DNA of 32,000 nucleotides from Candidatus Moraniibacteriota bacterium (GCA_013336225.1 JAAXUC010000007.1:27554-59553), one strand, 5' to 3'; positions 10,154 through 32,000 are shown, counted from the stretch's first letter. Numbers and translations are program-made. Notes: generated from the letters alone by a model not told the origin.

Positions 10154-10266
10154 TTTTAGCTTATTAGGCGTTAGCTTTTTAGGAAATGCAAGAAACAAAA
10201 ATATGTTTTTTTTTAATTTTAGGACTTCAAAGCTGAAAAGCTGAGAAGCTAATGCCTGATAAGCTA
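10154..10266. repeat. TAGCTT-word palindromic element E2 (paired arms)
   Basis: Left arm ttttagcttattaggcgttagctttttaggaaatgc spans 10154-10189. Right arm aagctgaaaagctgagaagctaatgcctgataagcta spans 10229-10266 and contains the dnaB stop (cta = TAG). Confidence 0.6.
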
Positions 10267-11673: not shown

Positions 11674-11766
11674 TAGGCTATTAGCTTTTCAGCTTTTTAG
11701 AAAATGCATTTTGTTGAAAATAATTTTAACACCTAGGAAGCTAAAAAGCTAAAGCCTAAGAAGCTA
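11671..11766. repeat. TAGCTT-word palindromic element E3 (paired arms)
   Basis: Left arm cattaggctattagcttttcagctttttagaaaatgc (11671-11707) begins with the dnaB start codon. Right arm cctaggaagctaaaaagctaaagcctaagaagcta spans 11732-11766. Confidence 0.6.
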
Positions 11767-11847
11767 GTTCATTATAGCAGTTTTGCATGCTCAAGCAATA
11801 GCAAAAATAGGCAAAAAATCAACACTTTATGCAATGTTTACGAACCA

Positions 11848-11939: not shown

Positions 11940-12449
11940 ATGAAGGAAATCAGTATTGAGGAAAGAGAGTTGGTTTTATTGGAAGTTGGCATGCGAACAG
12001 TGCGTGAAGCTATCAAGGGGATTTGCACTTTCGGGAAGCCAAGCGCCCGGGTTAATTTTGAGGCAGCTGAATTGTGGGTTAAGGATAATGCTCATGATAT
12101 CAATGCTTCAAAAGAATTGTTGCGAATAACTTTCCTTGGGCAACTGAAGAACCATGCCATAGCTGGCCTAAGGGAATATGAATTCGGAGATATCAGTGCT
12201 GAAGATAGAAGGCACGTCTTATCCGAAGTTGGCATGATAATCTTCAGAGGAGATGCGGACAAGAGAGGGATGCTGTACATTGATGTTTCGAGTAACATTG
12301 TTCGAAATGTCATAGTTAACTGGAGTGAGGCCGCCGCTTGGTCCACACTGAGAGCTCTCGAATTGCGCGTGCCAGAGAAAACACTCAGAATCATCATGCT
12401 TGAGTATCTCAGGCAACGGGCGATCGAAGAGATTGAAAAATACCAGTAA
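11940..12449 (+). CDS. Hypothetical protein made of two tandem ~83-aa repeats
   Basis: GGGAGGA SD upstream. EISIEERELVLLEVGM...LRITFLGQLKNHAI..REY is echoed by DISAEDRRHVLSEVGM...LRIIMLEYLRQRAI..EKY. Confidence 0.7.
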   Translation: MKEISIEERELVLLEVGMRTVREAIKGICTFGKPSARVNFEAAELWVKDNAHDINASKELLRITFLGQLKNHAIAGLREYEFGDISAEDRRHVLSEVGMIIFRGDADKRGMLYIDVSSNIVRNVIVNWSEAAAWSTLRALELRVPEKTLRIIMLEYLRQRAIEEIEKYQ

Positions 12450-15496: not shown

Positions 15497-15532
15497 CTTT
15501 TAGCTTTTAGGCATTAGCTTTTTAGGAAATAC
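15494..15532 (+). repeat. TAGCTT-word element E4 (single arm)
   Basis: tagcttttagcttttaggcattagctttttaggaaatac, beginning with the yidD TAG stop. Confidence 0.55.
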
Positions 15533-15652: not shown

Positions 15653-16402
15653 ATGAGTGATGGCTTTTTTGAAACAAATCTTCATCCAGTAGCGGTTCAT
15701 AACAAGGATTCATTTCCTGAAAGGGATGCTTCAGAAGAAGGAATTTGCGACAGGATGCGGGCAAGCATGGATAATGCTTTTGCCAGCAATGCCAGTGTCA
15801 TTGAATGTTCGCATTCAGGAGAAAGAGAAACAATTAATTTTGAAGATGGCAGGAATGCTTCCGCGAAAAGAAACAAGTTGCCACTTCCGCGTAAGCGTAG
15901 TAGTTCACTCTTGGCAGAAAAAGGAGACAGCATGAAAGAAATTGAAAAAAAAGAAGAAATTATGGGTGGAGCTTTTTGGCCAAAGGTCGGCAGTTTGGAA
16001 GAAAAAGCGAAACGATTGAAAGCACTCGGTGTTGTTCCAGGTTCAATTGCAGAGCTTATGGATGTGATTGTTGCTGGTGACAATATGCAGGATATAAGTG
16101 CCCTGTGTGCCGCTTTCCCTGATGTTCTATATTGTCATCAGATAAAGCGTAATTTTCCGTTCGTCATGGCTCCACTGGTTACGCCTTATCACAAGAAAGA
16201 CATTACGCTCAAGGGTCATACAATATGCGAAGTTGATTGTGGACGCTCTTGTCAGACTGCACACCACCTGGTTGATGGCAAAAATGATTTCATCTATTCC
16301 ATTCAAGCTTTCAAGTTATGCATAGATGATGAAGGTTTAACTAGAAATGAATTGATTGCTGCTGGTCAACTTGTGCCAGCATCTGTCGGTCTGCATTTGT
16401 AG
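15653..16402 (+). CDS. Hypothetical protein with a low-complexity N-terminal half and a Cys/His-containing C-terminal half
   Basis: CAGGAGG SD lies 5 nt upstream and a strong terminator follows. No family recognised. Confidence 0.7.
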   Translation: MSDGFFETNLHPVAVHNKDSFPERDASEEGICDRMRASMDNAFASNASVIECSHSGERETINFEDGRNASAKRNKLPLPRKRSSSLLAEKGDSMKEIEKKEEIMGGAFWPKVGSLEEKAKRLKALGVVPGSIAELMDVIVAGDNMQDISALCAAFPDVLYCHQIKRNFPFVMAPLVTPYHKKDITLKGHTICEVDCGRSCQTAHHLVDGKNDFIYSIQAFKLCIDDEGLTRNELIAAGQLVPASVGLHL

Positions 16403-16701: not shown

Positions 16702-17436
16702 ATGGATTCTAGGCAAGAAAAAATTTTAGCGACAGTGATTGAAGAATACACTCAAACTGCAATTCCAGTTGGTAGTCAGATTTTGGTTGGGAAATATAAA
16801 TTCAAAGTAAGTCCAGCAACAATTAGAAATGACATGACCGCATTGGAAGAGGAAGGATATTTGTTTCAACCACACATCAGTGCTGGAAGAATTCCAACTG
16901 ACAAAGGCTATCGATATTTTGTGGAAGAGATGATGAAGGACAAAATTCTCTCCAAAGATGAGCAACAAAAGATGCAAAGAGAATTTTTGAAATTGAAAGC
17001 TCAAAACACGCGCCTCACCAGAACCACGGCAAAACTGCTTTCACACGTGAGTGGAAATTTTGCAATCAGTGGAAGTAACGATGAATTTTCTGATTTCGGC
17101 ATGCGAGAATTGATGGAAGAGCCTGAATTCAAGGAGCTGGATGAAATGTGTCGCTTGGTTGAAATGTTGGATTATGTGGATGAGAAATTTGATCAGCTCA
17201 CGAAGGGTATTAAGGATGGAGAGGTGAAAATTTTCATTGGCAAGGAGAATCCAATTGAGGCAGCTGCCAATTGCTCGATGATTGTGTCGCCATACACTCT
17301 GAGCAGTGGAGAGAAGGGAATCTTGGCACTCATTGGTCCAAAGCGCATGGCATATGCCAAAAATAAATCAATGATTGAATATGTGAAAAAGCTTTTAGGG
17401 GCGAGCATGATGATAGTAATATTTTTATATATATAA
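16702..17436 (+). CDS. hrcA: Heat-inducible transcription repressor HrcA (short, 244 aa)
   Basis: N-terminal winged-helix block ILATVIEEYTQTAIPVGSQ...SPATIRNDMTALEEEGYL.QPHISAGRIPTDKGYRYFV. C-terminal ALIGPKRMAYAK. Confidence 0.9.
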   Translation: MDSRQEKILATVIEEYTQTAIPVGSQILVGKYKFKVSPATIRNDMTALEEEGYLFQPHISAGRIPTDKGYRYFVEEMMKDKILSKDEQQKMQREFLKLKAQNTRLTRTTAKLLSHVSGNFAISGSNDEFSDFGMRELMEEPEFKELDEMCRLVEMLDYVDEKFDQLTKGIKDGEVKIFIGKENPIEAAANCSMIVSPYTLSSGEKGILALIGPKRMAYAKNKSMIEYVKKLLGASMMIVIFLYI

Positions 17437-17563: not shown

Positions 17564-18145
17564 ATGAAAAAACAATCAAAAAAAATAGACGAGACAGAAA
17601 AGAAAGATATTAAGGATATTGAAGAACCTGCCCGCAATGCTTCGCATAGCGATGCAGGCGGGGAAATTGTGGAAAAGCCAGAAACCGAGATTGAGCAGCT
17701 TGCAAAAAAAGCGGCCGAAAATCTTGATGGATGGCAACGATGCCAAGCTGACTTTGAAAATTACAAAAAGCGCAGCAGCGAGTCGCAAAAAGATTTGGTG
17801 AAATATGCAACGCAGAGCATCATTTTGGAAATCTTGCCAGTGATCGACAATTTCCATGCTTCAACTGATCACATTCCAGCCGAGCAAAAAGACAATTCCT
17901 GGGTGACTGGAATCATGTACATTCAAAAACAATTGGAAAACATTGTGACAGAAAATGGAGTTGAAGAAATTGAAGTGAAAATTGGAGGAAATTTTGATCC
18001 AATCTATCACGAAGCGATTGAGGACAAGGAATGTGTTGATTGCAAAGTTGATCACAAATACAAGAATAAGATTAAGAAAATTTTGACCAAGGGATATAAG
18101 ATTGGGGACAGGGTCATTCGGGCAGCAAGAGTGGTGGTGGAATAG
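17564..18145 (+). CDS. grpE: Nucleotide exchange factor GrpE
   Basis: WQRCQADFENYKKR and the C-terminal beta domain GYKIGDRVIRAARVVV. Confidence 0.93.
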   Translation: MKKQSKKIDETEKKDIKDIEEPARNASHSDAGGEIVEKPETEIEQLAKKAAENLDGWQRCQADFENYKKRSSESQKDLVKYATQSIILEILPVIDNFHASTDHIPAEQKDNSWVTGIMYIQKQLENIVTENGVEEIEVKIGGNFDPIYHEAIEDKECVDCKVDHKYKNKIKKILTKGYKIGDRVIRAARVVVE

Positions 18146-18184
18146 CTTATTAGGCGTTAGCTTCTTAGCTTTTCAGGAAAATGC
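18143..18184 (+). repeat. TAGCTT-word element E5 (single arm)
   Basis: tagcttattaggcgttagcttcttagcttttcaggaaaatgc, beginning with the grpE TAG stop. Confidence 0.55.
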
Positions 18185-18434: not shown

Positions 18435-20366
18435 ATGAGTAAAATTCTCGGAATCGACTTAGGAACAACAAACAGCGCGATGGCAATCGTGACTGGAGGT
18501 AAACCAGAAATCCTCGAAAACAAAGAGGGAAATCGCACCACACCTTCAATGGTGGCAATCTCAAAAACAGGAGAACGCTTGGCTGGACTATTGGCAAAAC
18601 GACAATCAGTGACCAACCCTGCCAACACTTTGTATTCAATCAAGCGTTTGATTGGGCGCGCCTATCACGACGCTGAAGTTCAACGGGATGAAAAATTGAT
18701 GCCATACAAAATTGTGCACGCTGGCGAAAACGTCAAAGTGACCATGGGTGACAAAGACTATTCTCCACAAGAAATTTCAGCCATGATTTTGGGAAAATTG
18801 AAAGCTGATGCTGAAGAAAAATTGGGAGAAAAAATCACAGATGCTGTGATCACAGTGCCTGCATATTTCGATGATGCTCAAAGAAAAGCCACCAAGGAAG
18901 CTGGAGAAATTGCAGGTTTCAATGTGCGTCGCGTGATCAATGAACCGACAGCAGCCGCTTTGGCCTATGGTTTTGACAAGAAAGCTGATGAAAAAATCGC
19001 AGTCTATGATTTGGGTGGAGGAACTTTCGACATTTCAATCTTGGAAGTTGGAGGGGACACAGTGGAAGTGAAATCAACCAATGGCGACACTCATCTTGGA
19101 GGAGACGACTTTGATCAAATCATCATTCAATGGATCATCGATGAATTCAAAAAACAAGAAGGCATCGATCTTTCCAATGATCCTTTGTCATTGCAACGCA
19201 TCAAAGAAGCTGCTGAAAAAGCCAAGATTGAACTTTCAACCGCGCAAGACACTGAAATCAATCAACCTTTCATCACTTCTGATGCATCGGGTCCAAAACA
19301 TTTGGTGATGAAAATGACTCGCGCAAAATTGGAAGAATTGGTTGGCGACCTTGTGCAAAAAACACTTGAGCCAGTGAAAAAGGCACTTGCTGATTCAAAA
19401 CTTTCAGTAGCAGATATCAATGAGATCGTGATGGTGGGAGGAATGACTCGCATGCCATTGGTTTTGCAAACAGTTGAAAAATTCTTTGGCAAAAAACCAA
19501 ACATTTCCGTGAACCCTGACGAAGTGGTGGCGCTTGGTGCAGCCATTCAAGGAGGAGTGCTTGAGGGAAGCGTGAAAGATGTTTTGCTTTTGGATGTGAC
19601 TCCACTGACTCTTGGAATCGAAACCATGGGAGGAATTTCAACTCCGCTGATTGAAAGAAACACCACGGTGCCAACGAGCAAAACTCAGACCTTCTCAACC
19701 GCTGCTGACAATCAACCAGGCGTTGAAATTCATGTGTTGCAAGGAGAACGCGAAGTTGCTTCAGGCAACAAGACCCTTGGAAAATTCTTGCTCGATGGAA
19801 TTCCACCATCACCTCGCGGAGTGCCACAAATTGAAGTGGAATTTGACATTGATGCCAACGGAATTTTAAATGTAACTGCCAAAGACAAAGCAACTGGAAA
19901 ATCACAATCAATCAAAATCGAAGCATCATCCGGTCTTTCAAAGGAAGAAATTGAAAAAATGAAAAAAGATGCTGAAATGCATGCTGATGAAGACAAGCAG
20001 AAGAAAGAATTGGTTGAAGCTCGCAACATGGCTGACACACTTGTCTATACAACTGAGAAAGCCATGCGCGATGCTGGTGAGAAGGTGACCGAAGAGGAAA
20101 CCAAGCCAGTCAAAGAAGCAATTGAGGAATTGAACAAAGTGAAAAACGGTGAGGACTTGAATGAAATTAAAGCCAAAACCGAAACACTTTCGCAAGCTGC
20201 GCAAAAGATTGGTGAAAAACTCTATGCTGCTGCCGAGGAAACAAAAAAGGCTGAAGCTGAAGCCAACGCCGGCGCCGAAGGCGCACCAGTGAAAGAGGCA
20301 GAAGTTGAAGGCGACAAGCCTGCTGACGAAGCAGGGGAGGAGAAAAAAGACGAAGACAAAAAATAA
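18435..20366 (+). CDS. dnaK: Molecular chaperone DnaK (Hsp70)
   Basis: [30 protein letters not shown] and an acidic C-terminal tail. The start is set at Met 12 of the listed ORF. Confidence 0.97.
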
Positions 20367-20372
20367 TCTTTA

Positions 20373-20403
20373 AAAGAGCGAGGCACTTAGCCTCGCTCTT
20401 TTG
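20373..20403 (+). terminator. Intrinsic terminator after dnaK
   Basis: Stem agagcgaggc / gcctcgctct, loop actta, followed by tttt. Confidence 0.85.
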
Positions 20404-20423
20404 TAAAAAAGTGACTAATAAAT

Positions 20424-21227
20424 ATGAACAATACAGAAGAAGTTATACAAACTAGAATTTCTGCATATGGTCCAGGTTATTCAATAATTGATTTTGCATT
20501 GGATACGACAATTTTAAACTCCAATAATGATGGTGATAAAAAAATTTTCACCTTTGCATTCTTAGGGAGAAAAATAATTTGGACAAATCCAATCCAGGAT
20601 AACAAAGGTGGGCAATATGTGCAACGTATAACAATAGATTGGCTTGATCAAAAAGAATATTCGGACTATGGAGTAGTGATGAAATTTTTGAGTGCAGTTT
20701 GTTTTCTGGTTGATGGAATTGTTTTGGATGTGTTATTTGATGCGTCTGGACCATTCCCTGGTCCTAGATGTTCCAGGAAAGTTAGTTTTTCATGTTTGAA
20801 TGGATATGAAATTGATTTTCTTATTGCCAGTGTGGATTGGGAAAAAATTTCAGATAATAATTGGGCAATGTTGGCGTATTACAGACAAGGAGTAAATTCA
20901 AGAAGTTCGCATACAGCATTTCTATCTTTCTGGAATATATTAGAAGTTTATTTCAAAAGAAATCATGATGATATTAAAAAGTACATAAATGAAGAAATTG
21001 AAAAAATGCAAAGTTTTGAAGAGTGGAAGAAGAAAAATGGTTTAAATTTTTATAGGAAATTAAAAGATACAAGGCATAAATCAGCACATGTTCTTTTGAA
21101 TGATGATTCCATGAGTCAAATGCAAAATCCTGATAATCCAATTGAATATATTGAAATGAATGAAAATAAATTGATTATAAAAAGTTTAAGTGAAAAAATA
21201 ATTAATTCATGTCTTTATAAAAAATAA
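20424..21227 (+). CDS. Hypothetical protein with a C-terminal HEPN-like region (Rx4H)
   Basis: 267-codon ORF. The helical C-terminal half AYYRQGVNS..FLSFWNILEVYF ... TRHKSAH has R217-x4-H222 at 21072-21089. The functional assignment is motif-level only. Confidence 0.65.
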   Translation: MNNTEEVIQTRISAYGPGYSIIDFALDTTILNSNNDGDKKIFTFAFLGRKIIWTNPIQDNKGGQYVQRITIDWLDQKEYSDYGVVMKFLSAVCFLVDGIVLDVLFDASGPFPGPRCSRKVSFSCLNGYEIDFLIASVDWEKISDNNWAMLAYYRQGVNSRSSHTAFLSFWNILEVYFKRNHDDIKKYINEEIEKMQSFEEWKKKNGLNFYRKLKDTRHKSAHVLLNDDSMSQMQNPDNPIEYIEMNENKLIIKSLSEKIINSCLYKK

Positions 21228-21322
21228 AAGATGCTATAAAATTCATCATCATCCACATCACTCACGAAAATCTCAAAGAAGCGATGCATGAAAATTGAAG
21301 TCGAGGCAAATGGGGAATATAT

Positions 21323-21393
21323 AAATTGGATAAAACGAGAAACAGAATAAATTTTGCCAAAGAAAAAAGCCCTGCGATTTCGCGGGGCTTTTT
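21323..21393. repeat. Copy A of a ~70-nt module (conserved 45 nt plus terminator hairpin) 3' of ORF 21413..22111
   Basis: aaattggataaaacgagaaacagaataaattttgccaaagaaaaaagccctgcgatttcgcggggcttttt. Compare copy B at 22292-22364. Confidence 0.6.
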
Positions 21394-21412
21394 GTTTCAC
21401 ATTCTTTTAATG

Positions 21413-22111
21413 CTAATGGAGTGATGCATTGACATTGAATTTGTCATGAAGAAAAGTCCGTATGCCGATATCGTCCAAAGTTCTTTCTTTTGTGGTTATG
21501 TCTTTTGTCCACTTGAAAAGTATTCCATATGTCATGAATCCCTTGCTACTCTTGAAAAACCTTATAAACTGGGCATCATGTTTTTCAAAGCAGTTCTTGA
21601 TTTTTGAAATAGTCTCTTCCTCTTTCATTCCTGCGAGAAAATTGACTATCTCTTTTTCACGGCGAAATTCCAATTCAATTTTTAAAAAGTCATAAGATTC
21701 GGCTGCAAAAATTGGTTCGCGCACATTGAATGGTGGTGGATATGCTTTAATAACTTCCATTGCAATCAATTTGCGCATTTGGCCGGAAAGCATTGCCGCG
21801 GTTTTTGGATGCATTTTCTTATTATTCATGGCTCCCTGAAAAAACATTTCCAGGTCTACTTGAAAACCGCCTGTTGTCTTGCTTTTACTTATTGACCATG
21901 ATAATACATTGCCGCCGCTATAGAAATTGAGTTGCTTAATCCACGTCGGCATCATTTTGCGAAGCCATGCTCGATGTCCATTGAGAAAGCATTTTGTTTC
22001 GCAGGAAATCTTTACAGTTGTTCCGAGGTCTGGCTCATAAATATTCTCCAGGCCTAGTAGCAATTTTTTCAACGCAATTGGTTTTCTGACTCCAGGTTTT
22101 GTTCCTTGCAT
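21413..22111 (-). CDS. Hypothetical protein; possible Pol-beta-fold nucleotidyltransferase (weak motif)
   Basis: AGGAGG lies 5 nt upstream of the ATG. FYSGG-x18-DLEM (21848-21919) resembles hG[GS]...[DE]h[DE]h, but the spacing is longer than in minimal NTases. Confidence 0.7.
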   Translation of the reverse strand: MQGTKPGVRKPIALKKLLLGLENIYEPDLGTTVKISCETKCFLNGHRAWLRKMMPTWIKQLNFYSGGNVLSWSISKSKTTGGFQVDLEMFFQGAMNNKKMHPKTAAMLSGQMRKLIAMEVIKAYPPPFNVREPIFAAESYDFLKIELEFRREKEIVNFLAGMKEEETISKIKNCFEKHDAQFIRFFKSSKGFMTYGILFKWTKDITTKERTLDDIGIRTFLHDKFNVNASLH

Positions 22112-22291
22112 GACATCCTCCTGTCACAATCTTTTTATTTGTGCCCGTCCAGGGCCGTTCATTTTTTGCAGATCCTGTCTGCTTGTACACTGCCGCCTCC
22201 TTGTCGGCCATTTTGTTAAAAAACTCATTTCACCCAATATTTATTGGTTTTTTAATATATCAACAAATCTATGCAAAAGCAAGGGATATGC

Positions 22292-22364
22292 AAATTGGAT
22301 AAAACAAGAAACAAGATAAATTTTGCTAAATAAAAAAGCCTCGCGTCACTGCGCGGGGCTCTTT
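22292..22364. repeat. Copy B of the ~70-nt module, 3' of ORF 22381..22938
   Basis: aaattggataaaacaagaaacaagataaattttgctaaataaaaaagcctcgcgtcactgcgcggggctcttt. Confidence 0.6.
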
Positions 22365-22380
22365 GTGCTTAGTTGTGTTT

Positions 22381-22938
22381 TTACTGCATGATGTAATCGA
22401 CTCCTGTGCCGAAATTTGCTCGGCTTCGTTGGTCACTGTAGCGGACTGGATTCCATGGCGAGAGATAATTCTCCTCGAAATATTTCATGAATAAATCAAA
22501 TTGCTTTGAAGTTTCAGGAAAAATCCCAATAGTTAATTCGTGACTGTTCATGACAGCGCGTACGACTTCAAATTGAAAATCCTGCTCCTCTATGAATCCG
22601 CGTTTTGTGAAATGAAGCAGAAAAATCTGACGAAAGAGAAAGGCCACGCCCGCAATCAATTCAGCAGGGTTAAAACTTTTTTCATGTAAAATTTCATGTG
22701 CCTCTTTGTCGCGTCCTTCTTTATTGGCAAGAATCATTTCAATCTGTTGTCTTGCTTCAACCTCACTGCCCATTGGGTTGATTATGAAGAAGTTCAGTGC
22801 TTGTGTAATGAATAGTGAAAACGTTTTCAAGTCATCGCTCGTTTCGCTTTGTTTTAGCAAATACATACTCTTGAACAAAACATTATTGAATATGCTTGGG
22901 GTCAAATAACGAGTTGCCAAAATTTGTAATCTTCTCAT
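22381..22938 (-). CDS. All-helical hypothetical protein with Rx4-5H and HExxH strings
   Basis: AAGGAG lies 7 nt upstream of ATG 22938; the listed TTG start at 22956 lies inside that SD. Motifs are RDKEAH (22696-22713), overlapping HEILH, and RAVMNSH. Confidence 0.7.
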   Translation of the reverse strand: MRRLQILATRYLTPSIFNNVLFKSMYLLKQSETSDDLKTFSLFITQALNFFIINPMGSEVEARQQIEMILANKEGRDKEAHEILHEKSFNPAELIAGVAFLFRQIFLLHFTKRGFIEEQDFQFEVVRAVMNSHELTIGIFPETSKQFDLFMKYFEENYLSPWNPVRYSDQRSRANFGTGVDYIMQ

Positions 22939-23114
22939 GAGAATCTCCTTTTTCAATTGGGAATGTGCTGCTTTTGGATTTTACCACTAACTTTGTATTA
23001 TACTCCAAAATAAGCCAAAAGTCAAGGTAGTAGGGAATTGAGGCTTTTCTCAGGCTCAAAGTGATGGTGCCAAAAAAATGCGGTCGTCTGAATTTGGCGC
23101 CAGGTTGGAACACG

Positions 23115-23151
23115 AAAAAAGACCTTGCGATTTTGACCGCAAGGTCTTTTA
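23115..23151 (-). terminator. Intrinsic terminator of the 23884..23189 operon
   Basis: Stem agaccttgcg / cgcaaggtct. The A6 run on the plus strand gives a T-run on the minus strand. Confidence 0.8.
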
Positions 23152-23188
23152 TTTTGGATTGATAATGCAACTTTGTAGTTTTATGAGA

Positions 23189-23521
23189 TCATGGTTGATC
23201 TTTTGCTTCAGTATTGCTTTTCAACAACACTTTCAGGAATAGGTCTGGAAATTTTTTTCGAATCATTCTTCCAATGAAAAAGAAAATGATCACTGTCAGC
23301 AGATTGAGAACCGAAAATGACTTGTCGTCAATTTGGCCTATCAGGATGAAGCTGAAATTGACCGAGATGATCGTTGTCAACATTGCCATTGATCCAAGAA
23401 TCGCATGTTGTTTTTTGGGTAGTTGCGCCAATCTGATGGCGTCATAATATGCACTTGAAAGGGGAAAAACCATGAGTAAGAAAATGCTGACAAGAAATTT
23501 GATGTTAAATAGTTCTGGCAT
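23189..23521 (-). CDS. Small integral membrane protein (about 3 TM segments)
   Basis: AAGGAG overlaps the upstream gene's TAA stop, indicating translational coupling. Hydrophobic segments include FLVSIFLLMVFPL, ILGSMAMLTTIISVNFSFILI and LNLLTVIIFFFI. Confidence 0.75.
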   Translation of the reverse strand: MPELFNIKFLVSIFLLMVFPLSSAYYDAIRLAQLPKKQHAILGSMAMLTTIISVNFSFILIGQIDDKSFSVLNLLTVIIFFFIGRMIRKKFPDLFLKVLLKSNTEAKDQP

Positions 23522-23533
23522 GGTTATTCTCCT

Positions 23534-23884
23534 TTAGCATTCTGCACATTCGGAAATGAAAAGCACATTTATTCCAAATTGCAGTTGGATTGTTGGATGC
23601 GTGTCAGTGTAGGTCAAACATCCATCCAGGGCTGATTCATTCGTTCTCATCATTTCTTCAAAAATTTCCATTTCTGCGCAGATGTCCTCAGCTCCTTCTT
23701 CAAGCTCCTCAATGTTTTCTCCGAGCGATTGTTGATAGGCGTTTCGGATGTCCTCTGCATCAAAGATGATTTTTTTGACAAATTCCCGGGTTGATTCGGG
23801 CAGGTTCGGAAGTTTTTCAATGGCTGAGGCGTAGGCAATGAAATAATCAACATCATCGATAAAGACCTCCATCTCCGTGATCAA
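23534..23884 (-). CDS. Acidic hypothetical protein
   Basis: The ORF has a TTG start at 23884 with GAGGA upstream; ATG 23872 is an alternative. It is co-oriented with and 12 nt from the membrane-protein gene. Confidence 0.6.
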   Translation of the reverse strand: MITEMEVFIDDVDYFIAYASAIEKLPNLPESTREFVKKIIFDAEDIRNAYQQSLGENIEELEEGAEDICAEMEIFEEMMRTNESALDGCLTYTDTHPTIQLQFGINVLFISECAEC

Positions 23885-24042
23885 GGAGGAATCCTCGAAT
23901 TCAGGATCTATAAAAAGGTTTCTGTGGGTGCTGATTTCATGGGAGCCTCCTTTCTTTGATTTGTTAAATAGCTATCTTTGTTATGGGGCATAATTGAAAA
24001 AAAGTCCATAGCGCGCGATGAAATTAAAAGCAAAAAATGTTT

Positions 24043-24081
24043 AAAAAAATAGAGCTCAGTGAAATTTCACTGAGCTCTTTA
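24043..24081 (-). terminator. Intrinsic terminator of ORF 24092..24448
   Basis: Near-perfect palindrome agagctcagtgaaa/tttcactgagctct. The A7 run on the plus strand gives a T-run on the minus strand. Confidence 0.8.
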
Positions 24082-24091
24082 AATATTTGCT

Positions 24092-24448
24092 TCATTTTCT
24101 AGCAGACTTTTCGATGTTTTCATATACGGTTTCCAACATAATCATTATTTCTTTAATGAGTGCTTTTTTTGTTGGAATAAGTCTTAACTTGTTGTTAAAG
24201 TCTTTTGCAGCCATGAAAAGAAGAAGTTCAATAGAGTTTCCAATCATTTCATTGCGAATGTCAATTCGCACCGCGACGGTTATTTTCAGAAGGTCTTCAA
24301 GAGTAATAATATCCCTCTCGATGAGCTCATGGTGCGCATCGCTGCTGTTTTTTTCACGCTCAAGTTTGAGTTCTTCTTGTATTTCAGTGCAATAGTCATG
24401 GATTTTTGCAAGCATGTCGCAATTAAATGGCCTGTCTAGCTTTCTCAT
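24092..24448 (-). CDS. Helical hypothetical protein
   Basis: GAGGTG SD upstream and a terminator downstream. No motif recognised. Confidence 0.7.
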   Translation of the reverse strand: MRKLDRPFNCDMLAKIHDYCTEIQEELKLEREKNSSDAHHELIERDIITLEDLLKITVAVRIDIRNEMIGNSIELLLFMAAKDFNNKLRLIPTKKALIKEIMIMLETVYENIEKSARK

Positions 24449-24532
24449 GGTTCACCTCGTCCTCGTTTATTTTTTTAAAGTGCTTGTTTGTGTGTGGTAT
24501 TTTTATCCCTGATGCTATATTTAAGCGTAAAA

Positions 24533-24554
24533 TGACAAAGTTGTCAAGCATGCT
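24533..24554. promoter_or_regulatory. Candidate operator palindromes in a divergent spacer
   Basis: TGACAA-ag-TTGTCA (24533-24546) is immediately followed by the perfect palindrome AGCATGCT (24547-24554). Confidence 0.3.
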
Positions 24555-24641
24555 GTTTGTGCACCCTTTACAATAAACAGATTTAATGTTTAACTCATAT
24601 ATTGCTGTTCTTTAAACTATATCTAAAGGGGAGGTGAGATC

Positions 24642-25031
24642 ATGGAAGGATTCTTTGCTAGTGAGGAAAATCGGCAATTGTATGTTCAATACTATATGGA
24701 TCTCCATCAAGCCATTGAAGACTTTAGTGTTGCGCTTAAAATTGAGCTCAATAACCATTTTGCCAATCCCGGTAAGATTATCTCCATAGGAAATTCCCAT
24801 CTTGGTTTTCATGGATTCTTGCGTTGCGCATACAGGCTTTTGTATGAGAGGCCAAATTATTTTAATGTGAGGGCATTTAATAATGAAAAAGAAGATGTTT
24901 ATCGCGTTGGCATCTTGCTGGAATTGGAAAATTTCTTGGTAAATCTTCCAGGCGCGACAATTCCGCTGCGACCGCCAGCCATTAGTGCTTGGCTCTCGCT
25001 TAAACAACGTGATAGATATGTCCAATTTTAA
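24642..25031 (+). CDS. Hypothetical protein
   Basis: GGGGAGGTGA SD upstream and a terminator downstream. No motif recognised. Confidence 0.75.
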   Translation: MEGFFASEENRQLYVQYYMDLHQAIEDFSVALKIELNNHFANPGKIISIGNSHLGFHGFLRCAYRLLYERPNYFNVRAFNNEKEDVYRVGILLELENFLVNLPGATIPLRPPAISAWLSLKQRDRYVQF

Positions 25032-25066
25032 AAAGGCGAAATTTCATTGAAATATCGCCTTTTTTC
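25032..25066 (+). terminator. Intrinsic terminator
   Basis: Stem aggcga(aatttc) / (gaaata)tcgcct, followed by tttttt. Confidence 0.7.
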
Positions 25067-25081
25067 TATGTCCAATAAATC

Positions 25082-25090
25082 TGCTATAAT
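25082..25090 (+). promoter_or_regulatory. Extended -10 promoter
   Basis: TGcTATAAT lies 28 nt upstream of ATG 25118. Confidence 0.45.
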
Positions 25091-25117
25091 GAATGTATTA
25101 ATAATCAAAAATAAAAT

Positions 25118-26176
25118 ATGAATCGTAAAAAAATTGAAATGCTGCTTGGCTCGTTGACGATGGTTGTGGCTTTTTTTTCATGGCTATCCGTGAAAAGTGC
25201 CATTGTTGTGCCTGACTCCAGCACTTGGATGGTTCCAATGGTTCTTTTTTCATTATATGCTGTCTTAATTTGTTCAGATGTCATTCTTTTTCGCAGCGTG
25301 CTGGCCTTAGAGCTTGTTTTGATTGGTTCACTTTTGCTGAGCGCTGTTTTTGCTTTTCACTGGATTCAATTTGTTGCAATTTTGCTTGGCGCATATTTCA
25401 TATTTTTGTCATCAAGAAAAATCAGGGAAGACATGGATTTGAATGTTAAAATCAGCATTTGGAAATCGTTGCAAGTTGGCAAGACATATTTGCTCATTGC
25501 TCTGAGCTTAGTGATTGCAGCACAATACTTTTTTGTGATGAACAGTTTTGATGGAGAGAAAAAAGTTCCACATTTTGATGTGAGTTTTATCACGAAGAAA
25601 GTTGCCATTCCTTTTGTCTCAGCAATCAATCCACAATTTGCAGTGCTCAAGGATGAAACATTGACTGTTGACCAATTCATTTTGCAATCTCAACAAAATG
25701 CTCTTGAGAATGTTGGCATGTCAGAAGAAAATGAGAAAATTTTGGATGAAAATATTCCAACCAACCTCACGCCTTTGCAAAAAGAAGATCTCAAGAAGCA
25801 GGCTATTGAAAATTTCACTGGTGCGCAAACTCAACTTTTGCAAAAAAATCAAGAACTTATTTTGAAAAATGGCAGGAAACAATTCAGTGATCAGGTGGGT
25901 GTTACATTGACCGGAAGTGAAAAAATTTCAGATGTGTTCACTGGGCTTGTGAGCAGCAAGATTGATGATTATTTCAATCCAAAGGTTTCTGGTGGAGAAA
26001 AAAGTTCTGTTTTCCCAATGATTTTGGCAGCAGTGTTGCTTTTGACTATTTATCCGTTGGGTTCAATTTTGAGCATTGCTTGGTTTCTGATTGTGAAATT
26101 GGTGATAATTGCTTTACTGAAATTTAAAGTCATGAGTGTTGGCGTGATGACTGTTTCAAAGGAAACTCTTGAATAA
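25118..26176 (+). CDS. Multi-pass membrane protein, unknown function
   Basis: About 4 N-terminal and 2 C-terminal hydrophobic helices flank a polar central region. No SD. Confidence 0.8.
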   Translation: MNRKKIEMLLGSLTMVVAFFSWLSVKSAIVVPDSSTWMVPMVLFSLYAVLICSDVILFRSVLALELVLIGSLLLSAVFAFHWIQFVAILLGAYFIFLSSRKIREDMDLNVKISIWKSLQVGKTYLLIALSLVIAAQYFFVMNSFDGEKKVPHFDVSFITKKVAIPFVSAINPQFAVLKDETLTVDQFILQSQQNALENVGMSEENEKILDENIPTNLTPLQKEDLKKQAIENFTGAQTQLLQKNQELILKNGRKQFSDQVGVTLTGSEKISDVFTGLVSSKIDDYFNPKVSGGEKSSVFPMILAAVLLLTIYPLGSILSIAWFLIVKLVIIALLKFKVMSVGVMTVSKETLE

Positions 26177-26226
26177 TTAAATACGGCTTGCTCGTGGAGT
26201 ATTTTGGAATCAATTGTGATATGTGG

Positions 26227-26342
26227 TTTTTGCTTCGCCTATTTCCTCTTGAGAGCACGCTTCGCAGCCGAAATCTATGGCTGCTCACTCGGACCTCGCT
26301 CTCGCTCGCTACGGCTTCAAGAGAAAACAGGCGAAGCAAAAA
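26227..26342. other. 116-nt GC-rich long hairpin (candidate structured RNA or palindromic element)
   Basis: The 26-nt arms tttttgcttcgcctatttcctcttga / tcaagagaaaacaggcgaagcaaaaa have 2 mismatches. They enclose a 64-nt GC-rich core with an inner stem gcagcc/ggctgc. Confidence 0.4.
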
Positions 26343-26388
26343 TGCGAGTTAATTTTTGAAATCATATGTTGTGTATATTTCCTGAAGT

Positions 26389-26425
26389 TATAATCCAATT
26401 AGCACTCCCGGCAAGGGATTGCTAA
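26389..26425 (+). promoter_or_regulatory. TATAAT -10 box plus second CIRCE operator upstream of dnaJ
   Basis: TATAAT spans 26389-26394. CIRCE TTAGCACTC-ccggcaagg-GATTGCTAA spans 26399-26425, with one mismatch in the right arm. No convincing -35 was found. Confidence 0.8.
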
Positions 26426-26489: not shown

Positions 26490-27584
26490 ATGGCTGACTA
26501 TTATAAAATTTTAGGTGTTGATAAGAACTCATCCGATGATGAGATTAAAAAGGCTTATCGAAAGCTTGCTCACAAGCATCATCCAGACAAGCAAGGTGGA
26601 GATGCGGAAAAATTCAAGGAAATCAATGCGGCCTATCAAGTGCTTTCGGACAAATCCAAGCGTCAGCAATATGACCAATTCGGATCTGGCTTTGAGCAGC
26701 GAGGTGGTGGTGGCGGATTTGGTGGTTTTGGAGGCCAGGGTTTCAGTGGCTTTTCTCAAGGCGGGCAAGATTTTGATTTTGGCGACGGGTTTGAAGACAT
26801 TTTTTCAAACATTTTTGGTGGCGGTCAAAGTGGTGGAAGAAAACAGGACATGCGAAAAGCTGGCAATGACATTCAGGTGGATGTGGAAATGAATTTTGAG
26901 GAGATGGTGAATGGTGCTCATCGTGAAATTGAATTGTATCAGCGAGTGCTTTGTGATGTTTGCGCTGGATCTGGCGGCGAGCCAGGAGCAAAAGAGCAGA
27001 CCTGCGAAACTTGCAAAGGCAGCGGAAAGATTCACAAGACTGTGAGCAGCTTCTTTGGTTCATTTTCACAAGCCTATGTTTGTCCATCTTGCCAAGGGAT
27101 GGGAAAAACTTTTTCACAAAAATGTCACAAATGTCGTGGGGAGGGCAGAGTTAAGCAAGCTCGCAAAATTCCAGTTGACCTTCCGGCAGGAATTTCTGAT
27201 GGACAAACTGTTTCAATGCAAGGACAAGGTGAAGCGGGAGAGCGCGGCGCACAATCTGGAGATTTATACATCACAGTGCATATCACAAAGCATCCTAAAT
27301 TTACACGTGAAGGAAATAATTTGCTTTCAACTGAAACGATTTCATTTTCGCAGGCTGCACTTGGAGATAAAATAAATGTTGCAACAATTGATGAAGTTGT
27401 GAAAATGAAAATTCCTGCCGGCACGCAATCTGGAGAAATGTTTCGCATCAAGGGGCAGGGTGTTCCAAGCCTTGGTCGCACCAATCGCGGCGACCATTTG
27501 GTGAAAATCATTGTTCAGGTGCCAAAAAACCTCTCTCGCGACCAAAGAAAAATTTTGGAAGAGTTGCAAAAAGAGGGACTTTAA
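26490..27584 (+). CDS. dnaJ: Molecular chaperone DnaJ (type I)
   Basis: J domain with HPD, a G/F-rich region, and four CxxCxGxG motifs ([32 protein letters not shown]). Confidence 0.96.
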
Positions 27585-27747: not shown

Positions 27748-30700
27748 ATGACCTGGTTTAAAAGCAAGCTGACAAGTATGCAGAAATCTTTAAGTGGCGC
27801 ATCAACAATCGTTAAAAAGAAATTTGATCTTAAGAAATCGACCGCAGTTTTGCTTGTGGTTTTTTTATTGTCCGGAATCGCTTTGGTGCAAGTCAATGCG
27901 CAGACAAAGAAAGTCATCGATGCGTATATTCTGGATATCACACACAGGATTAGAAATAATGATATTTCAAAAAAAGCAAAAATAAGTTACAAAAAACTCG
28001 GACTTAGAAATTCTATCAGATCAAAAGATATTAAAAATGGCGAAGTTAAAACATCTGACATTAAAGATGGTGCAGTGACACTTGCCAAGCTTGCTGGAAA
28101 CGTCATTGGACAAATCGCTGTTCAAAATGGAACAATCTCCTCAGGCTCAATTCAAGATGGCGCTATCGTGACGATTAAGCTGGCCGATGGATCAGTGACG
28201 ACTGTGAAGATTGAAGATGGAGCTGTTGATACCAATAAACTTGCTAATGACAGTGTGACCAGTGCTAAGATTGCAAATGGCACAATCAATAGCATTGACC
28301 TTAATGATGGAATCATCACTGATGTGAAATTGGCTGACGGAGCTGTGACGACTGCCAAAATTTTGGATGGTTCAATCACGGCTGGCAAATTGGAAGCAGG
28401 ACTTTTGGCTTCCATCACTTTGGCTGATGGCAGCGTGACCACAATTAAGCTTGCTGACGGCGCAGTTACTGATGTGAAATTGGCTGACGGATCAGTGACA
28501 ACTGCCAAGCTTTTGGATAATGCAGTTGTGACGAGCAAATTGGCTGATGGTAGTGTGACTGATGTGAAAATTGTCGATGGTGCAATCACCAATGGAAAAT
28601 TGGCTGATGGATCAGTGACCACTTTGAAACTTGCTGATGACTCTGTAACCAGCGCCAAGATTGTGGATGGATCAGTGCAAACACTTGATTTGATTGATGG
28701 CATCATTACTAATGTTAAACTTGCTGACAACAGTGTGACGACCGCCAAAATTTTGGACGGTTCAATTACGGCTGGAAAAATTGCCAATGGAGCAATTCTT
28801 GCAGTTAGTTTGGCTGATGGTAGTGTGACTAATGCAAAAATCGCTGATGGGGCAATTGATAGTTTGAAACTGGCTGATGATTCTGTGACCAGCGCAAAAA
28901 TCCTTGACTCTGCTGTGACTGCCAGCAAATTGGCTGACGACAGTGTAACCGCAGTTAAGATTGTTGATGGAGCTGTGACCAATGGAAAACTTGCTGATGG
29001 ATCAGTGACCACAATTAAAATAGGGGACGACGCAATTACAACTGCAAAAATTGTTGACGGCACAATCGTGGGACAAGATCTTGCTGATTCAATAATCAGC
29101 TCTATTAAGATTGCTGATGGTGCTGTGACAGCAATTAAGATTGCTGATGATGCAATCATCACGGCAAAGATTGCAGACGGAGCTGTGACTAATGGAAAAC
29201 TTGCAAATGACGCTGTGGCCACAATCAATCTTATTGATGGCAGTGTTGTGACAACTAAAATTGCTGACGGAGCTATCGTTAATGCAAAAATTGGTGATCA
29301 GGAAATTAGTGGCGCAAAATTGGCTGCAAATATAACTATTGATACCACTGGTTCAATCACGGCTGCATCATTTACTGACGGCGTTGCCACTATTGCTGGT
29401 GGAGATATTACAGCTAATAATATTTCTATCCTAGGTTCAATCACCTCAGCTGTTGGTGGATTTGTGGGAGACCTTGTTGGAAATGTAATCGGAAATGTGA
29501 CGGGAAATGTCACCGGAAATCTTTTTGGAAATGCTGACAGTGCAACCAATGCTGATAATGCGACAACTGTCACTGATGGTGTATATACAACTGGCTCATA
29601 TGCTGATCCTGCTTGGATCACAAGTTTGAATGCTGTTAAGTTGTTTGGAGTCTTCACTGGAAATGTTGTCGGCAATGTGCTGGGAAATTTGACTGGAAAC
29701 GTGACTGGAGACGTCACTGGAAATCTCTTTGGAAATGCTGATAGTGTTACCAATGGAATCTATTCAACTGGTTCATATAGTGACCCAGCTTGGCTTAGCG
29801 GAATTGGAGCTTCCAAGATTATCGGAACGATTGTTGGAACGCAAGTTGCTGATGGCACACTTACTGGCGGAAAATTGGCTTCTGACGGCAGCATGGTTAA
29901 GTCAATCGTGGCTGGGCCAAATGTGACGGCAACTAATAATAATGATGGAACTTGGACAATTGATATTTCCGGGGGCGTGGGACTTGGAACTATCACTGGC
30001 GTGACCGCAGGCGATGGTCTTGTTGGTGGCGGAAATATTGGAGATGTCACTTTGGATATAGGCGCTGGAACAGGAATGGTTGTGGGTGTGAATACGATTG
30101 GAATTGCAGATGCTGGAGTCAACACTCAGCAAATTGCTGATGGCAGTGTGGTTGCAAGCAAATTGGCTGATGGCAGCGTGATCACTTCAAAAATTGCTGA
30201 TGGCGCAGTTACTGGTGGAAAAATTGCTGCTGGAACTATTTTGGACACCATGTTGGCTGACGGATCAGTGACCACTTCAAAATTGGTTGATAATGCTGTG
30301 ACGGGAATTAAGCTTGCTGATGACAGCGTGGGGACTTCAAAACTTCAAAACTTGGCAGTGACAACCGTCAAGCTGGCTGATGGAAGTGTGACTGCGGCAA
30401 AAATTTTGGATGCCACCATTACGGCTGGAAAAATTGTTGATGGGACTATCACCACAATCAAACTTGCTGATGACAGTGTGACCACTGCTAAAATTGTGGA
30501 TGGAACAATCATGGCTACTGATTTGGCTGATGGAATCATCACCACAATTAAACTTGCTGATGACAGCGTGACCACTGCTAAAATTGTGGATGGAGCTGTT
30601 ACTGCTGGAAAACTTGCTGATGGGAGTGTTGTTAGTTTGAGTCTGGCAGATGGATCAGTGACAACTGCTAAAGTTGCTGACGGTGCAATTACTGATATTA

Positions 30701-32000
30701 AGCTTGCTGATGACAGCGTGACCACTGCTAAAATTTTGGACAGCGCTGTGACTACCGGAAAACTTGCTGACGGAAGTGTTGTCACAAGCAAAATCGCAGA
30801 TGCAACCATCACTTCAGGAAAAATTGCAGACAGTGCAATCACCCCTGCTCATCTTGCTGATAGTGCTGTTACCAATGCCAAGCTTGCAGCTGACGCTGTG
30901 ACAACTGACAAAATTGCTGACGGCACAATCGTGGGAGCTGATTTAGCCTCAGATATTGATATCACAACTACTGGTGTGGTTGTTGCTACTGGTTTCGTGG
31001 GTGATATGATTGGAAACATTTCTGGCAACGCTGAAACTGTGACTGACGGAATTTATGGTTTGGTTGATAATACTTTCTCTGGGGTTAATACTTTTGCTCA
31101 AACGATTGTGGGAAACATTTCTGGTAATGCTGGAACTGTGACTGACGGAGTTTATGCAACAACTGATCAAACAATTTCAGGTATCAAGACATTTACCAAC
31201 GGAATCATTTCTGATGTAACTGGAAACTTGACTGGCGATGTTGCTGGAAACGTTACTGGAGATGTGACGGGAAATGTTGTTGGTGATTTAACTGGAAATG
31301 TAACTGGAGACGTAACTGGAGACGTAATCGGAAACGTGACTGGCGATGTGACTGGTGATCTAACCGGAAATGTTGTTGGCGACGTCACTGGAAATTTGAC
31401 TGGTGATGTTATTGGAAATGTAACAGGCGATGTGGTTGGAAACGTTGTTGGAAATTTAACTGGCGACGTCACTGGAAATCTTTTTGGAAATGCAACCACA
31501 GCTACAACTGCAGACACCGTGCTTGATGGAGCAATCACCAACGTCAAGCTTGCAGCTGACGCTGTGACAACTGACAAAATTGCTGACGGCACAATCGTGG
31601 GAGCTGATTTAGCCTCAGATATTGATATCACAACTACTGGTGTGGTTGTTGCTACTGGTTTCGTGGGTGATATGATTGGAAACATTTCTGGCAACGCTGA
31701 AACTGTGACTGACGGAATTTATGGTTTGGTTGATAATACTTTCTCTGGGGTTAATACTTTTGCTCAAACAATTGTTGGAAACATTTCTGGTAATGCGGAA
31801 ACTGTGACCAATGGTGTGTATGCAATCGGAGATCAGACAATTGCTGGAGTTAAAACATTTACATCTGACATTATTGGAAACATCACAGGCAATGCAGCAA
31901 CTGTGACTGATGGAGTTTATGCGACAACTGATCAAACAATTTCAGGTATCAAGACATTTACCAATGGTATCGTTTCAAACGTTACTGGAAATGTAACAGG
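27748..32000 (+). CDS. Giant secreted/surface repeat protein, 3'-partial (at least 1417 codons)
   Basis: My codon-by-codon translation of frame 1 from ATG 27748 found no stop up to nt 32000. The N-terminus is signal-peptide-like (KKKFDLKKSTAVLLVVFLLSGIALVQVNA-Q). It is missing from the ORF track because there is no stop inside the window. Confidence 0.85.
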   Translation, partial: MTWFKSKLTSMQKSLSGASTIVKKKFDLKKSTAVLLVVFLLSGIALVQVNAQTKKVIDAYILDITHRIRNNDISKKAKISYKKLGLRNSIRSKDIKNGEVKTSDIKDGAVTLAKLAGNVIGQIAVQNGTISSGSIQDGAIVTIKLADGSVTTVKIEDGAVDTNKLANDSVTSAKIANGTINSIDLNDGIITDVKLADGAVTTAKILDGSITAGKLEAGLLASITLADGSVTTIKLADGAVTDVKLADGSVTTAKLLDNAVVTSKLADGSVTDVKIVDGAITNGKLADGSVTTLKLADDSVTSAKIVDGSVQTLDLIDGIITNVKLADNSVTTAKILDGSITAGKIANGAILAVSLADGSVTNAKIADGAIDSLKLADDSVTSAKILDSAVTASKLADDSVTAVKIVDGAVTNGKLADGSVTTIKIGDDAITTAKIVDGTIVGQDLADSIISSIKIADGAVTAIKIADDAIITAKIADGAVTNGKLANDAVATINLIDGSVVTTKIADGAIVNAKIGDQEISGAKLAANITIDTTGSITAASFTDGVATIAGGDITANNISILGSITSAVGGFVGDLVGNVIGNVTGNVTGNLFGNADSATNADNATTVTDGVYTTGSYADPAWITSLNAVKLFGVFTGNVVGNVLGNLTGNVTGDVTGNLFGNADSVTNGIYSTGSYSDPAWLSGIGASKIIGTIVGTQVADGTLTGGKLASDGSMVKSIVAGPNVTATNNNDGTWTIDISGGVGLGTITGVTAGDGLVGGGNIGDVTLDIGAGTGMVVGVNTIGIADAGVNTQQIADGSVVASKLADGSVITSKIADGAVTGGKIAAGTILDTMLADGSVTTSKLVDNAVTGIKLADDSVGTSKLQNLAVTTVKLADGSVTAAKILDATITAGKIVDGTITTIKLADDSVTTAKIVDGTIMATDLADGIITTIKLADDSVTTAKIVDGAVTAGKLADGSVVSLSLADGSVTTAKVADGAITDIKLADDSVTTAKILDSAVTTGKLADGSVVTSKIADATITSGKIADSAITPAHLADSAVTNAKLAADAVTTDKIADGTIVGADLASDIDITTTGVVVATGFVGDMIGNISGNAETVTDGIYGLVDNTFSGVNTFAQTIVGNISGNAGTVTDGVYATTDQTISGIKTFTNGIISDVTGNLTGDVAGNVTGDVTGNVVGDLTGNVTGDVTGDVIGNVTGDVTGDLTGNVVGDVTGNLTGDVIGNVTGDVVGNVVGNLTGDVTGNLFGNATTATTADTVLDGAITNVKLAADAVTTDKIADGTIVGADLASDIDITTTGVVVATGFVGDMIGNISGNAETVTDGIYGLVDNTFSGVNTFAQTIVGNISGNAETVTNGVYAIGDQTIAGVKTFTSDIIGNITGNAATVTDGVYATTDQTISGIKTFTNGIVSNVTGNVT
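28051..29340 (+). repeat. Coding array A: 43 uninterrupted 30-nt (decapeptide) units
   Basis: Consensus x-x-K-[LI]-A-D-G-[SA]-[VI]-T, for example TIKLADGAVT DVKLADGSVT TAKLLDNAVV. No indel across 1290 nt. Confidence 0.9.
29470..29733 (+). repeat. Two short tetrapeptide arrays, each followed by a TDGxY..GSYxDPAW module
   Basis: 29470-29529 has 5 units (DLVG NVIG NVTG NVTG NLFG). 29662-29733 has 6 units ending in NLFG. Confidence 0.8.
30124..30963 (+). repeat. Coding array B: 28 uninterrupted decapeptide units
   Basis: Same consensus and register as array A, running from TQQIADGSVV to GADLASDIDI. Confidence 0.9.
30880..31103 (+). repeat. Intragenic duplication, copy 1
   Basis: Base-for-base identical by eye to 31546-31769 (224 nt, offset 666 nt). 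Confidence 0.85.
31213..31488 (+). repeat. Coding array: 23 uninterrupted 12-nt (tetrapeptide) units [DN]-[VL]-[TVIAF]-G
   Basis: DVTG NLTG DVAG NVTG ... DVTG NLFG, ending in the same NLFG-N-A cap as the smaller arrays. Confidence 0.9.
31546..31769 (+). repeat. Intragenic duplication, copy 2
   Basis: Identical to 30880-31103. Similarity continues with scattered mismatches to about 31795. Confidence 0.85.

Follow-up and report, generated by a model that had tools for sequence, protein, structure and literature searches.

A variable islet of cassette-like genes between dnaK and dnaJ in a Candidatus Moranbacteria genome

Eight open reading frames (ORFs) lie between dnaK and dnaJ on a 32,000-nucleotide stretch of DNA from a Candidatus Moraniibacteriota bacterium (GCA_013336225.1 JAAXUC010000007.1:27554-59553; the whole stretch is called the window below). 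What these ORFs are, and how they came to stand inside a heat-shock operon, is the question addressed here. They were numbered O1 to O8 in window order from dnaK to dnaJ; loci of relatives are labeled L and homologous proteins P, each with a number. The window comes from a metagenome-assembled genome of Candidatus Moranbacteria (Patescibacteria/Candidate Phyla Radiation, CPR), whose closest species representative is Moraniibacteriota UBA12142 (DnaK 96% identical). The interval is probably a strain-variable islet of accessory genes that splits an ancestral hrcA-grpE-dnaK-(O8)-dnaJ operon in one Candidatus Moranbacteria subclade and turns over by recombination at modules and flanks. The descriptive part of this reading is firmer than the part concerning mechanism. 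The islet belongs to a known kind, the flexible genomic islet, and is not a recognizable defense or toxin-antitoxin system.

A preliminary description of the window had counted eight orphan genes in the interval, five of them on the minus strand. ORF calling confirmed the number and the strands between dnaK (18441-20366) and dnaJ (26490-27584); the other core genes of the operon are hrcA (16702-17436) and grpE (17564-18145). The eight ORFs fall into three classes, namely O1 (20424-21227, plus strand) and O8 (25118-26176, plus strand), which are fixtures of the two flanks, and O2 to O7, which form a variable core at about 21.3-25.1 kb. The term orphan did not hold for the ends, since O8 belongs to a conserved dnaJ-side family and O1 matches Pfam MauJ and is syntenic with dnaK.

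A scan of dnaK loci with one genome per species returned 80 loci, and 33 Patescibacteria loci contained both dnaK and dnaJ. The two genes were 27-700 bp apart in 20 of the 33 loci; the distance was 1.2-3.3 kb in 11 others and exceeded 5 kb in the remaining 2. Gaps of 1-3 kb often contained a DUF3467 gene and an O8-like membrane protein. In the Moranbacteria locus L008, dnaK, O8 and dnaJ were contiguous, with only O8 between the chaperone genes. L005 had a different insert of 5.5 kb, encoding a trypsin-like peptidase, a PP2C phosphatase, a YdjM-like protein and unknowns. In L001, whose DnaK is 96% identical, a different gene followed dnaK before the contig end, and L082 had other content at the dnaK-side site, including an inserted methyltransferase gene. 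Several related contigs broke within 750 bp after dnaK, which is circumstantial but fits strain heterogeneity at the site. The view of the interval as a cassette-like, variable island was therefore upheld by the neighborhood comparison: dnaK and dnaJ are often close together, L008 lacks the insert, and the content differs in L005, L082, L084 and L001.

The most informative relative was L084 (DnaK 91% identical). Its interval measures about 9.4 kb and contains some 20 small genes without a confident Pfam match. Homologues of O2, O4, O5 and O6 were present in a different order, and O1, O3 and O7 were absent. The nonsynonymous divergence (dN) from L084 was 0.46-0.64 for O4, O5, O6 and O8 and 0.08 for dnaK; the nonsynonymous rates of O4 to O6 and O8 were three- to eightfold those of hrcA or dnaK. 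Composition was compared with that of the core genes, and only O1 was an outlier. The GC content and codon usage of O2 to O7 resembled those of the core genes, and these genes therefore appear to be drawn from the lineage's own gene pool. Recent transfer of O2 to O7 from a distant donor was rejected on the same ground. We consider it reasonably likely that insulated and independently expressed mini-units for strain-specific small proteins have long been inserted at this site, a hotspot within the heat-shock operon.

The insulation of these units is suggested by their terminators. Strong hairpins of the A-run/hairpin/T-run type were found at six positions, in agreement with the earlier reading that intrinsic terminators close dnaK and five islet units. 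The dnaK terminator (20372-20402, plus strand) has a 13-bp stem with no mismatch. In the islet, H1 (21364-21393) is a two-way terminator between the convergent O1 and O2, and H2 (22333-22362), H3 (23115-23152), H4 (24049-24080) and H5 (25030-25064) are terminators of O3, the O5-O4 unit, O6 and O7, respectively. O2 to O7 would thus make up five self-contained, moron-like transcription units (O2; O3; O5-O4; O6; O7). Each would combine a Shine-Dalgarno (SD) sequence with the ORF or ORFs for a small protein that evolves fast and is restricted to the lineage, and would end in a two-way hairpin terminator insulating the unit from its neighbors and from the operon. Promoters of the sigma-70 type were identified for O2 and O3 and are expected from position for the other units.

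Direct repeats were found around several of the cassettes. Two units had been said to share a 3' module of about 70 nt. This module is real, with a length of 63 nt and 84% identity between its copies (21314-21376 and 22283-22345), and a similar hairpin follows each copy; it is better described as a direct repeat flanking O2, in which copy 1 (21314-21393) includes H1 and copy 2 (22283-22362) includes H2. The L084 islet contains five or more hairpins of the H2 family. In all, direct repeats of 29-100 nt bracketed cassettes in four genomes (the window, L082, L084 and L002). The methyltransferase gene of L082 lies between 55-nt copies of the O1 3' flank (2552-2606 and 3748-3802, 96% identical). 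A two-gene module in L084 lies between repeats of about 100 nt each (8481-8581 and 9748-9843), which comprise a hairpin and a 20-bp perfect palindrome. In L002, the first inserted gene after dnaK has one copy of the dnaK terminator on each side. L085 carries two identical H3 copies, one base in 34 off the H3 of the window, which flank a different cassette pair; H3 is thus near-identical in the two genomes, while their O2 proteins are only 51% identical. In L085, the promoter module is also duplicated ahead of two adjacent cassettes. The units would have been gained, lost and reshuffled among relatives by two likely routes. Recombination at the reused promoter and terminator modules would leave direct repeats around the cassettes, and the highly conserved dnaK and dnaJ flanks would permit homologous exchange.

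The identity of the repeated elements was also considered. H3 as a widespread element of the repetitive extragenic palindromic (REP) type was rejected, as a metagenome-wide pattern scan gave one unrelated match of high GC content. No Rfam family matched at the gathering thresholds. A match of isrJ to repeat copy 1 (plus strand) was below threshold (34 bits versus a gathering cutoff of 37) and was judged to be driven by the terminator because repeat copy 2 does not match. The L005 islet contains three copies of a palindrome of its own (CTATCGAGGTTCAACCTCGATAG) at 8668-8690, 10246-10276 and 10648-10678, and the reuse of hairpin modules may be general within dnaK-dnaJ islets.

The islet units also differ from the core genes in translation initiation signals. 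The preliminary description had noted canonical SD sequences in most islet units and their lack in core genes, and this contrast was reproduced by the calculated energies of pairing with the anti-SD sequence. The energies were -8.7 to -10.3 kcal/mol for O2, O3, O4 and O6 (-8.7 for O3) and -5.9 kcal/mol for O5, and O7 has the SD GGAGGTG, read by eye. At the start codons of alaS, dnaB, cysS, corA, hrcA, grpE, dnaK, dnaJ, O1 and O8, pairing was -3 kcal/mol or weaker. Across the window, housekeeping genes lacked an SD and had A/T-rich upstream sequence, and small accessory genes without a Pfam match had strong SDs. Three further strong-SD genes, all without a Pfam match, are located at 9192-9467 (minus strand), 11940-12449 and 15653-16402. 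The latter two fall in stretches without an alignment to the closest relative, and the first is outside the compared part of that relative's contig. The same SD split was seen in L084. The 16S rRNA gene of this genome lies outside the window. The anti-SD motif has been reported in only 48% of Parcubacteria 16S rRNAs (PMC9297842).

On the dnaJ side, O8 encodes a multi-pass membrane protein of 352 amino acids (aa). A hidden Markov model (HMM) built from O8 detected homologues in L005, L008, L084, L014, L015, L018 and L039, which end 13-130 nt ahead of dnaJ, or 345 nt in L005. O8 is not an orphan, because homologues stand directly upstream of dnaJ in these seven other Patescibacteria. It has no SD, and its composition resembles that of the core genes. 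Judged by its position, O8 is a conserved partner of dnaJ outside the variable islet. The family comprises multi-pass membrane proteins of about 350-420 aa in several classes of Patescibacteria, frequently preceded by DUF3467, and has the appearance of an addition to the chaperone operon that is specific to CPR bacteria.

The previously noted CIRCE (controlling inverted repeat of chaperone expression) ahead of dnaJ was confirmed at 26399-26425 (plus strand), with one mismatch to TTAGCACTC-N9-GAGTGCTAA. This second CIRCE, between O8 and dnaJ, was present in the islet-bearing window, L005 and L084 and absent from the contiguous operon of L008. The split therefore appears to predate the divergence of the islet-bearing relatives. 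From these motifs, dnaJ seems to be rewired for heat-shock control, which it would have retained through its own promoter and CIRCE. Between O8 and this CIRCE is a 116-bp element (26227-26342) with 26-nt inverted-repeat arms (92% complementary) around a 64-nt center. It has a T-run on its 5' side and an A-run on its 3' side on both strands and is therefore not a terminator; its shape is that of a miniature inverted-repeat transposable element (MITE). A second copy was seen neither in the window nor in the other loci analyzed.

On the dnaK side, O1 (267 aa) is identical to NCBI HGA36_03460 and matched Pfam MauJ (PF17419) with 39.4 bits, above the gathering cutoff of 28. Five homologues were found by a word-index search, and all 6 family members matched MauJ (best E value, 5e-13). 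dnaK was upstream of the O1 homologue in all five cases and directly upstream in four. A verified dnaK 3' end lies just ahead of the homologue in L083 and L089, and acidic C-terminal fragments resembling DnaK tails precede it in L090 and L091. In L082, three extra genes separate dnaK from the homologue, and a hairpin homologous to the dnaK terminator follows dnaK. The conserved O1 3' flank (21228-21290, plus strand) is the sequence duplicated in L082 around the inserted methyltransferase gene. The ratio of nonsynonymous to synonymous substitution (dN/dS) of O1 was 0.11-0.14 (about 0.13), an approximate value since synonymous sites were saturated, and points to purifying selection. O1 is the sole compositional outlier among the islet genes (GC, 29%; GC at third codon positions, 21%). 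The conserved gene order marks it as a MauJ-family fixture of the dnaK side rather than a mobile gene. Because its start is 21 nt past the dnaK terminator, with no SD, no promoter-like site upstream and no room for one, O1 is probably expressed by read-through of that terminator.

O2 (21413-22111, minus strand) encodes a basic protein of 232 aa. Only two homologues, 75% and 51% identical, were found by word-index search among 5.8 billion protein clusters. One adjoins dnaK in L084, and the other has a NUDIX gene as its neighbor on L085, a short contig of undefined context. The dN/dS of O2 was 0.11-0.14 against L084 and 0.26 against L085, again approximate because of saturated synonymous sites, and suggests that O2 is under purifying selection. 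An AlphaFold2 (AF2) model from three sequences had an overall predicted local distance difference test (pLDDT) score of 52, with about 70-86 over most of residues 140-232 and 57 around residues 201-210. A Foldseek search against PDB gave no match below an E value of 0.04, with generic alpha/beta hits only. The promoter and leader of O2 (22112-22282, minus strand) consist of a -35 box TTGCTT (22277-22282), a 17-nt spacer, a -10 box TATATT (22254-22259) and a leader of about 135 nt. The promoter (TTGCNT-17-TATATT) and leader were nearly invariant among the window, L084 (9812-10000) and L085 (667-855), whose O2 proteins share 51-75% identity. The leader is predicted to form four small hairpins (z = -2.2); in the last, the loop contains the SD, and the start codon has its first two bases paired. 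It is possible that the leader acts as a regulatory RNA. No Rfam family matched it, and its structure is unproven because no compensatory changes occurred across the three genomes.

O3 (22381-22938, minus strand; 185 aa, predicted helical) starts at an ATG preceded by an SD (22938) and not at an upstream TTG, in agreement with the public gene call. Its promoter at 22997-23025 (minus strand) is a consensus match, TTGACT-17-TATAAT. No homologue was found by the same word-index search or in IMG/VR or PDB, and from these searches O3 appears to be a true ORFan.

O4 (23189-23521, minus strand) encodes a membrane protein of 110 aa (pI 9.8) with about three membrane-spanning segments by hydropathy, and O5 (23534-23884, minus strand) encodes an acidic protein of 116 aa (pI 4.1) with the C terminus CAEC. 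O5 is located 12 nt upstream of O4. The homologues in the L084 islet are 49% (O4) and 44% (O5) identical and are separated by a gene of 137 aa. The small membrane protein next to an acidic protein, as noted earlier, was thus confirmed for the window. Ahead of O5 (23885-23960, minus strand) is a possible upstream ORF of 10 codons (MKSAPTETFL) with its own AAGGAGG SD, overlapping a predicted hairpin at 23916-23948. O6 (24092-24448, minus strand; 118 aa, predicted helical) has a homologue in L084 that is 43% identical and lies on the other side of O5/O4 than in the window.

O7 (24642-25031, plus strand; 129 aa) is divergent from O6, and both promoters are expected, from position, in the intergenic region 24449-24641 (SD GAGGTG for O6 and GGAGGTG for O7). 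An exhaustive HMMER search gave one true homologue, P0012 (36% identity; E value, 3e-10); the other matches were rejected as spurious hits to tetratricopeptide repeat (TPR) or other repeat proteins. The homologue and the SD identify the plus-strand frame of O7 as the real one. P0012 is encoded in L087, an unrelated contig of 40% GC, where two oppositely oriented IS3-family transposase genes flank it (1291-3548), much as in a composite transposon. In L088, the same two upstream genes precede the upstream IS3-family transposase gene, and nothing but a short truncated ORF is seen further on.

Two further observations concern the surroundings of the islet. An AAGCTAA-rich intergenic motif (e.g., AAAAGCTAAGAAGCTAATGCCTAA) occurs at 6094-6113, 6189-6220, 10233-10263, 11670-11770, 15505-15525 and 18146-18176; it adjoins core genes on both strands and is absent from the islet. 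Past dnaJ, an ORF of more than 1,400 aa (about 27800-32000, plus strand) leaves the window end. It has an N-terminal hydrophobic segment and tandem repeats of the 'ADGSVTxxKLxDG' type and probably encodes a surface or adhesin-like protein; long minus-strand ORFs over the same region are antisense artefacts of it.

The functional searches bear on the suggestion that the interval is a toxin-antitoxin, abortive-infection or defense islet, in which O1 and/or O3 would act as RNase toxins of the HEPN type, O4 as a membrane toxin paired with the acidic antitoxin O5, and the other small proteins as partners in immunity or regulation. Scans of all ORFs against Pfam, PADLOC-DB 2.0, NCBIfam and PHROGs gave MauJ for O1 as the only accepted match, with nothing below an E value of 0.005 in PHROGs. 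The only PADLOC match, HEC-01A for O2 (17 bits; E value, 6e-4), was rejected because the O2 homologues of 75% and 51% identity do not reproduce it. PDB sequence searches with O1 (by profile), O2, O3, O5, O6 and O7, IMG/VR scans with O1 and O3, and BLAST searches of phages and plasmids with the entire islet and with O1 all gave no match. No search tied any islet protein to a defense, toxin-antitoxin, phage or housekeeping family. The Rx4H motifs reported for two proteins are present (RHKSAH in O1 and RDKEAH in O3), and conservation could be assessed for O1 only, as O3 has no homologues. In O1, R217-x4-H222 was invariant in 6 sequences of 38-100% identity, in the form R[HNDT]xxAH, and this HEPN-like motif lies inside a helical C-terminal domain, as in HEPN-MNT (HepT/MntA) and other HEPN toxins. 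The AF2 model of O1 (6 sequences) had a mean pLDDT of 50.7, with values below 50 across residues 215-246, which is too poor for assignment of a HEPN fold, and a literature search on MauJ with HEPN and on PF17419 found nothing usable. The NTase-like DxE reported for a third protein, O2, was not conserved, since D86 of 'DLE' is N in the homologue P0009 and no nucleotidyltransferase (NTase) Pfam family matched.

A defense cluster is on balance quite unlikely. The invariant motif of O1, the similar one of O3, the tight spacing of O4 and O5 and the retention of both in L084, the fast evolution of the proteins at a variable locus and the position of the O7 relative among insertion sequence (IS) elements would all fit it. 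However, O1 is fixed downstream of dnaK wherever it is present, it has no operon partner, and it is convergent with O2; an adjacent, co-directional MNT gene as in HEPN-MNT systems is lacking, and the O4/O5 pair is interrupted by a third gene in L084. Together with the empty searches, the unreproduced PADLOC match, the substituted aspartate of O2 and an O1 model too poor to show a HEPN fold, these observations leave the suggestion unsupported. An integrated element in decay (prophage, integrative element or integron cassette array) is extremely improbable and largely refuted. Small single-gene units with related hairpin repeats at their 3' ends, direct repeats around cassettes and a location between conserved genes do recall such elements and integron arrays in particular. 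In contrast to these, the window contains no integrase (IntI or other), transposase or phage-like protein and no attI/attC architecture, the cassettes stand in both orientations and those examined have their own promoters, and the hairpins are perfect A-run/GC-stem/T-run terminators that are not attC-like. Phage, plasmid and IMG/VR collections gave neither DNA nor protein matches.

The fallback offered in the preliminary description, lineage-specific filler, came closer to the evidence in that these are accessory genes, although O1 and O8 at the ends are not orphans. In its strict form, with genes inherited in place, diverging fast and differing among genomes by deletion without cassette exchange, it is unlikely yet retains some plausibility. 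Host-like composition of O2 to O7 and the lack of mobility genes in the window agree with it, as does the restriction of O4, O5 and O6 homologues to the same interval of one relative (O2 is also found in L085). In full-length alignments, the clearly vertical O8 is also as diverged as O4 to O6 (38% versus 42-44% identity). Vertical inheritance alone is harder to reconcile with the different placement of O6 with respect to O5-O4 in the window and in L084, with the direct repeats around cassettes in four genomes, and with H3 hairpins one base apart accompanying different genes in the window and L085. The sole O7 relative, between IS3 transposase genes on an unrelated contig, and the lack of any relative of O3 also speak against it.

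A variable islet with turnover of its units therefore remains the preferred reading, and several points count against it. There is no recombinase, transposase or integrase in the 32-kb window, so the mechanism of mobility is inferred only. The comparison was built on about ten metagenomic contigs, most of them short. Repeated GC-rich terminator stems could in part be convergent, and shared genes at one locus with high divergence would also fit vertical descent plus loss. The promoters are consensus matches and, beyond O2 and O3, are assigned by position. The AF2 models are poor, and the proteins would most likely serve a strain-specific accessory function, such as an envelope, host-interaction or conflict role.

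The variable islet can be compared with two known arrangements. Flexible islets between core genes include the 'minimal mobile elements' of Neisseria and the replacement and additive flexible islands. As in these, the flanks (dnaK and O8-dnaJ) are conserved while whole-gene content differs among relatives, and the islet has no mobility genes of its own, so that the conserved flanks could serve homologous exchange. The present islet differs in its CPR host, in a site inside a heat-shock operon that needs a second CIRCE promoter, and in the short direct repeats that also bracket cassettes; exchange by transformation and recombination is here a conjecture. In phages, 'morons' are units of promoter, ORF and terminator inserted between conserved genes. 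The islet units are similar in that an SD precedes the one or two ORFs and an intrinsic terminator follows them, with own promoters found for O2 and O3, and in that they lie between genes that are adjacent in relatives. Unlike morons, they are chromosomal and not part of a prophage, match no PHROG or phage, and have host-like GC content. A bolder version, which we regard as speculative and improbable, is that the interval is a cassette-exchange site in CPR bacteria, independent of a recombinase or using an unknown one, at which promoter-SD-ORF-terminator units move at reused modules and leave repeats of 29-100 nt, with strong SDs marking the flexible pool. If this were true, two regimes of translation initiation would operate in parallel in the genome.

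No new defense system is revealed by the islet, and the repeat-bracketed cassettes and the SD contrast are its most worthwhile parts. On the reading preferred here, the islet shows how a minimal CPR genome can accommodate strain-specific genes, in the form of insulated mini-units within a heat-shock operon, with a second CIRCE compensating for the split. The distinction between a core without SDs and SD-led accessory genes would provide a cheap marker of the flexible gene pool in this lineage. Such a marker could be of use in annotation and in work on how translation starts in Parcubacteria, a group with reported loss of the anti-SD (PMC9297842).

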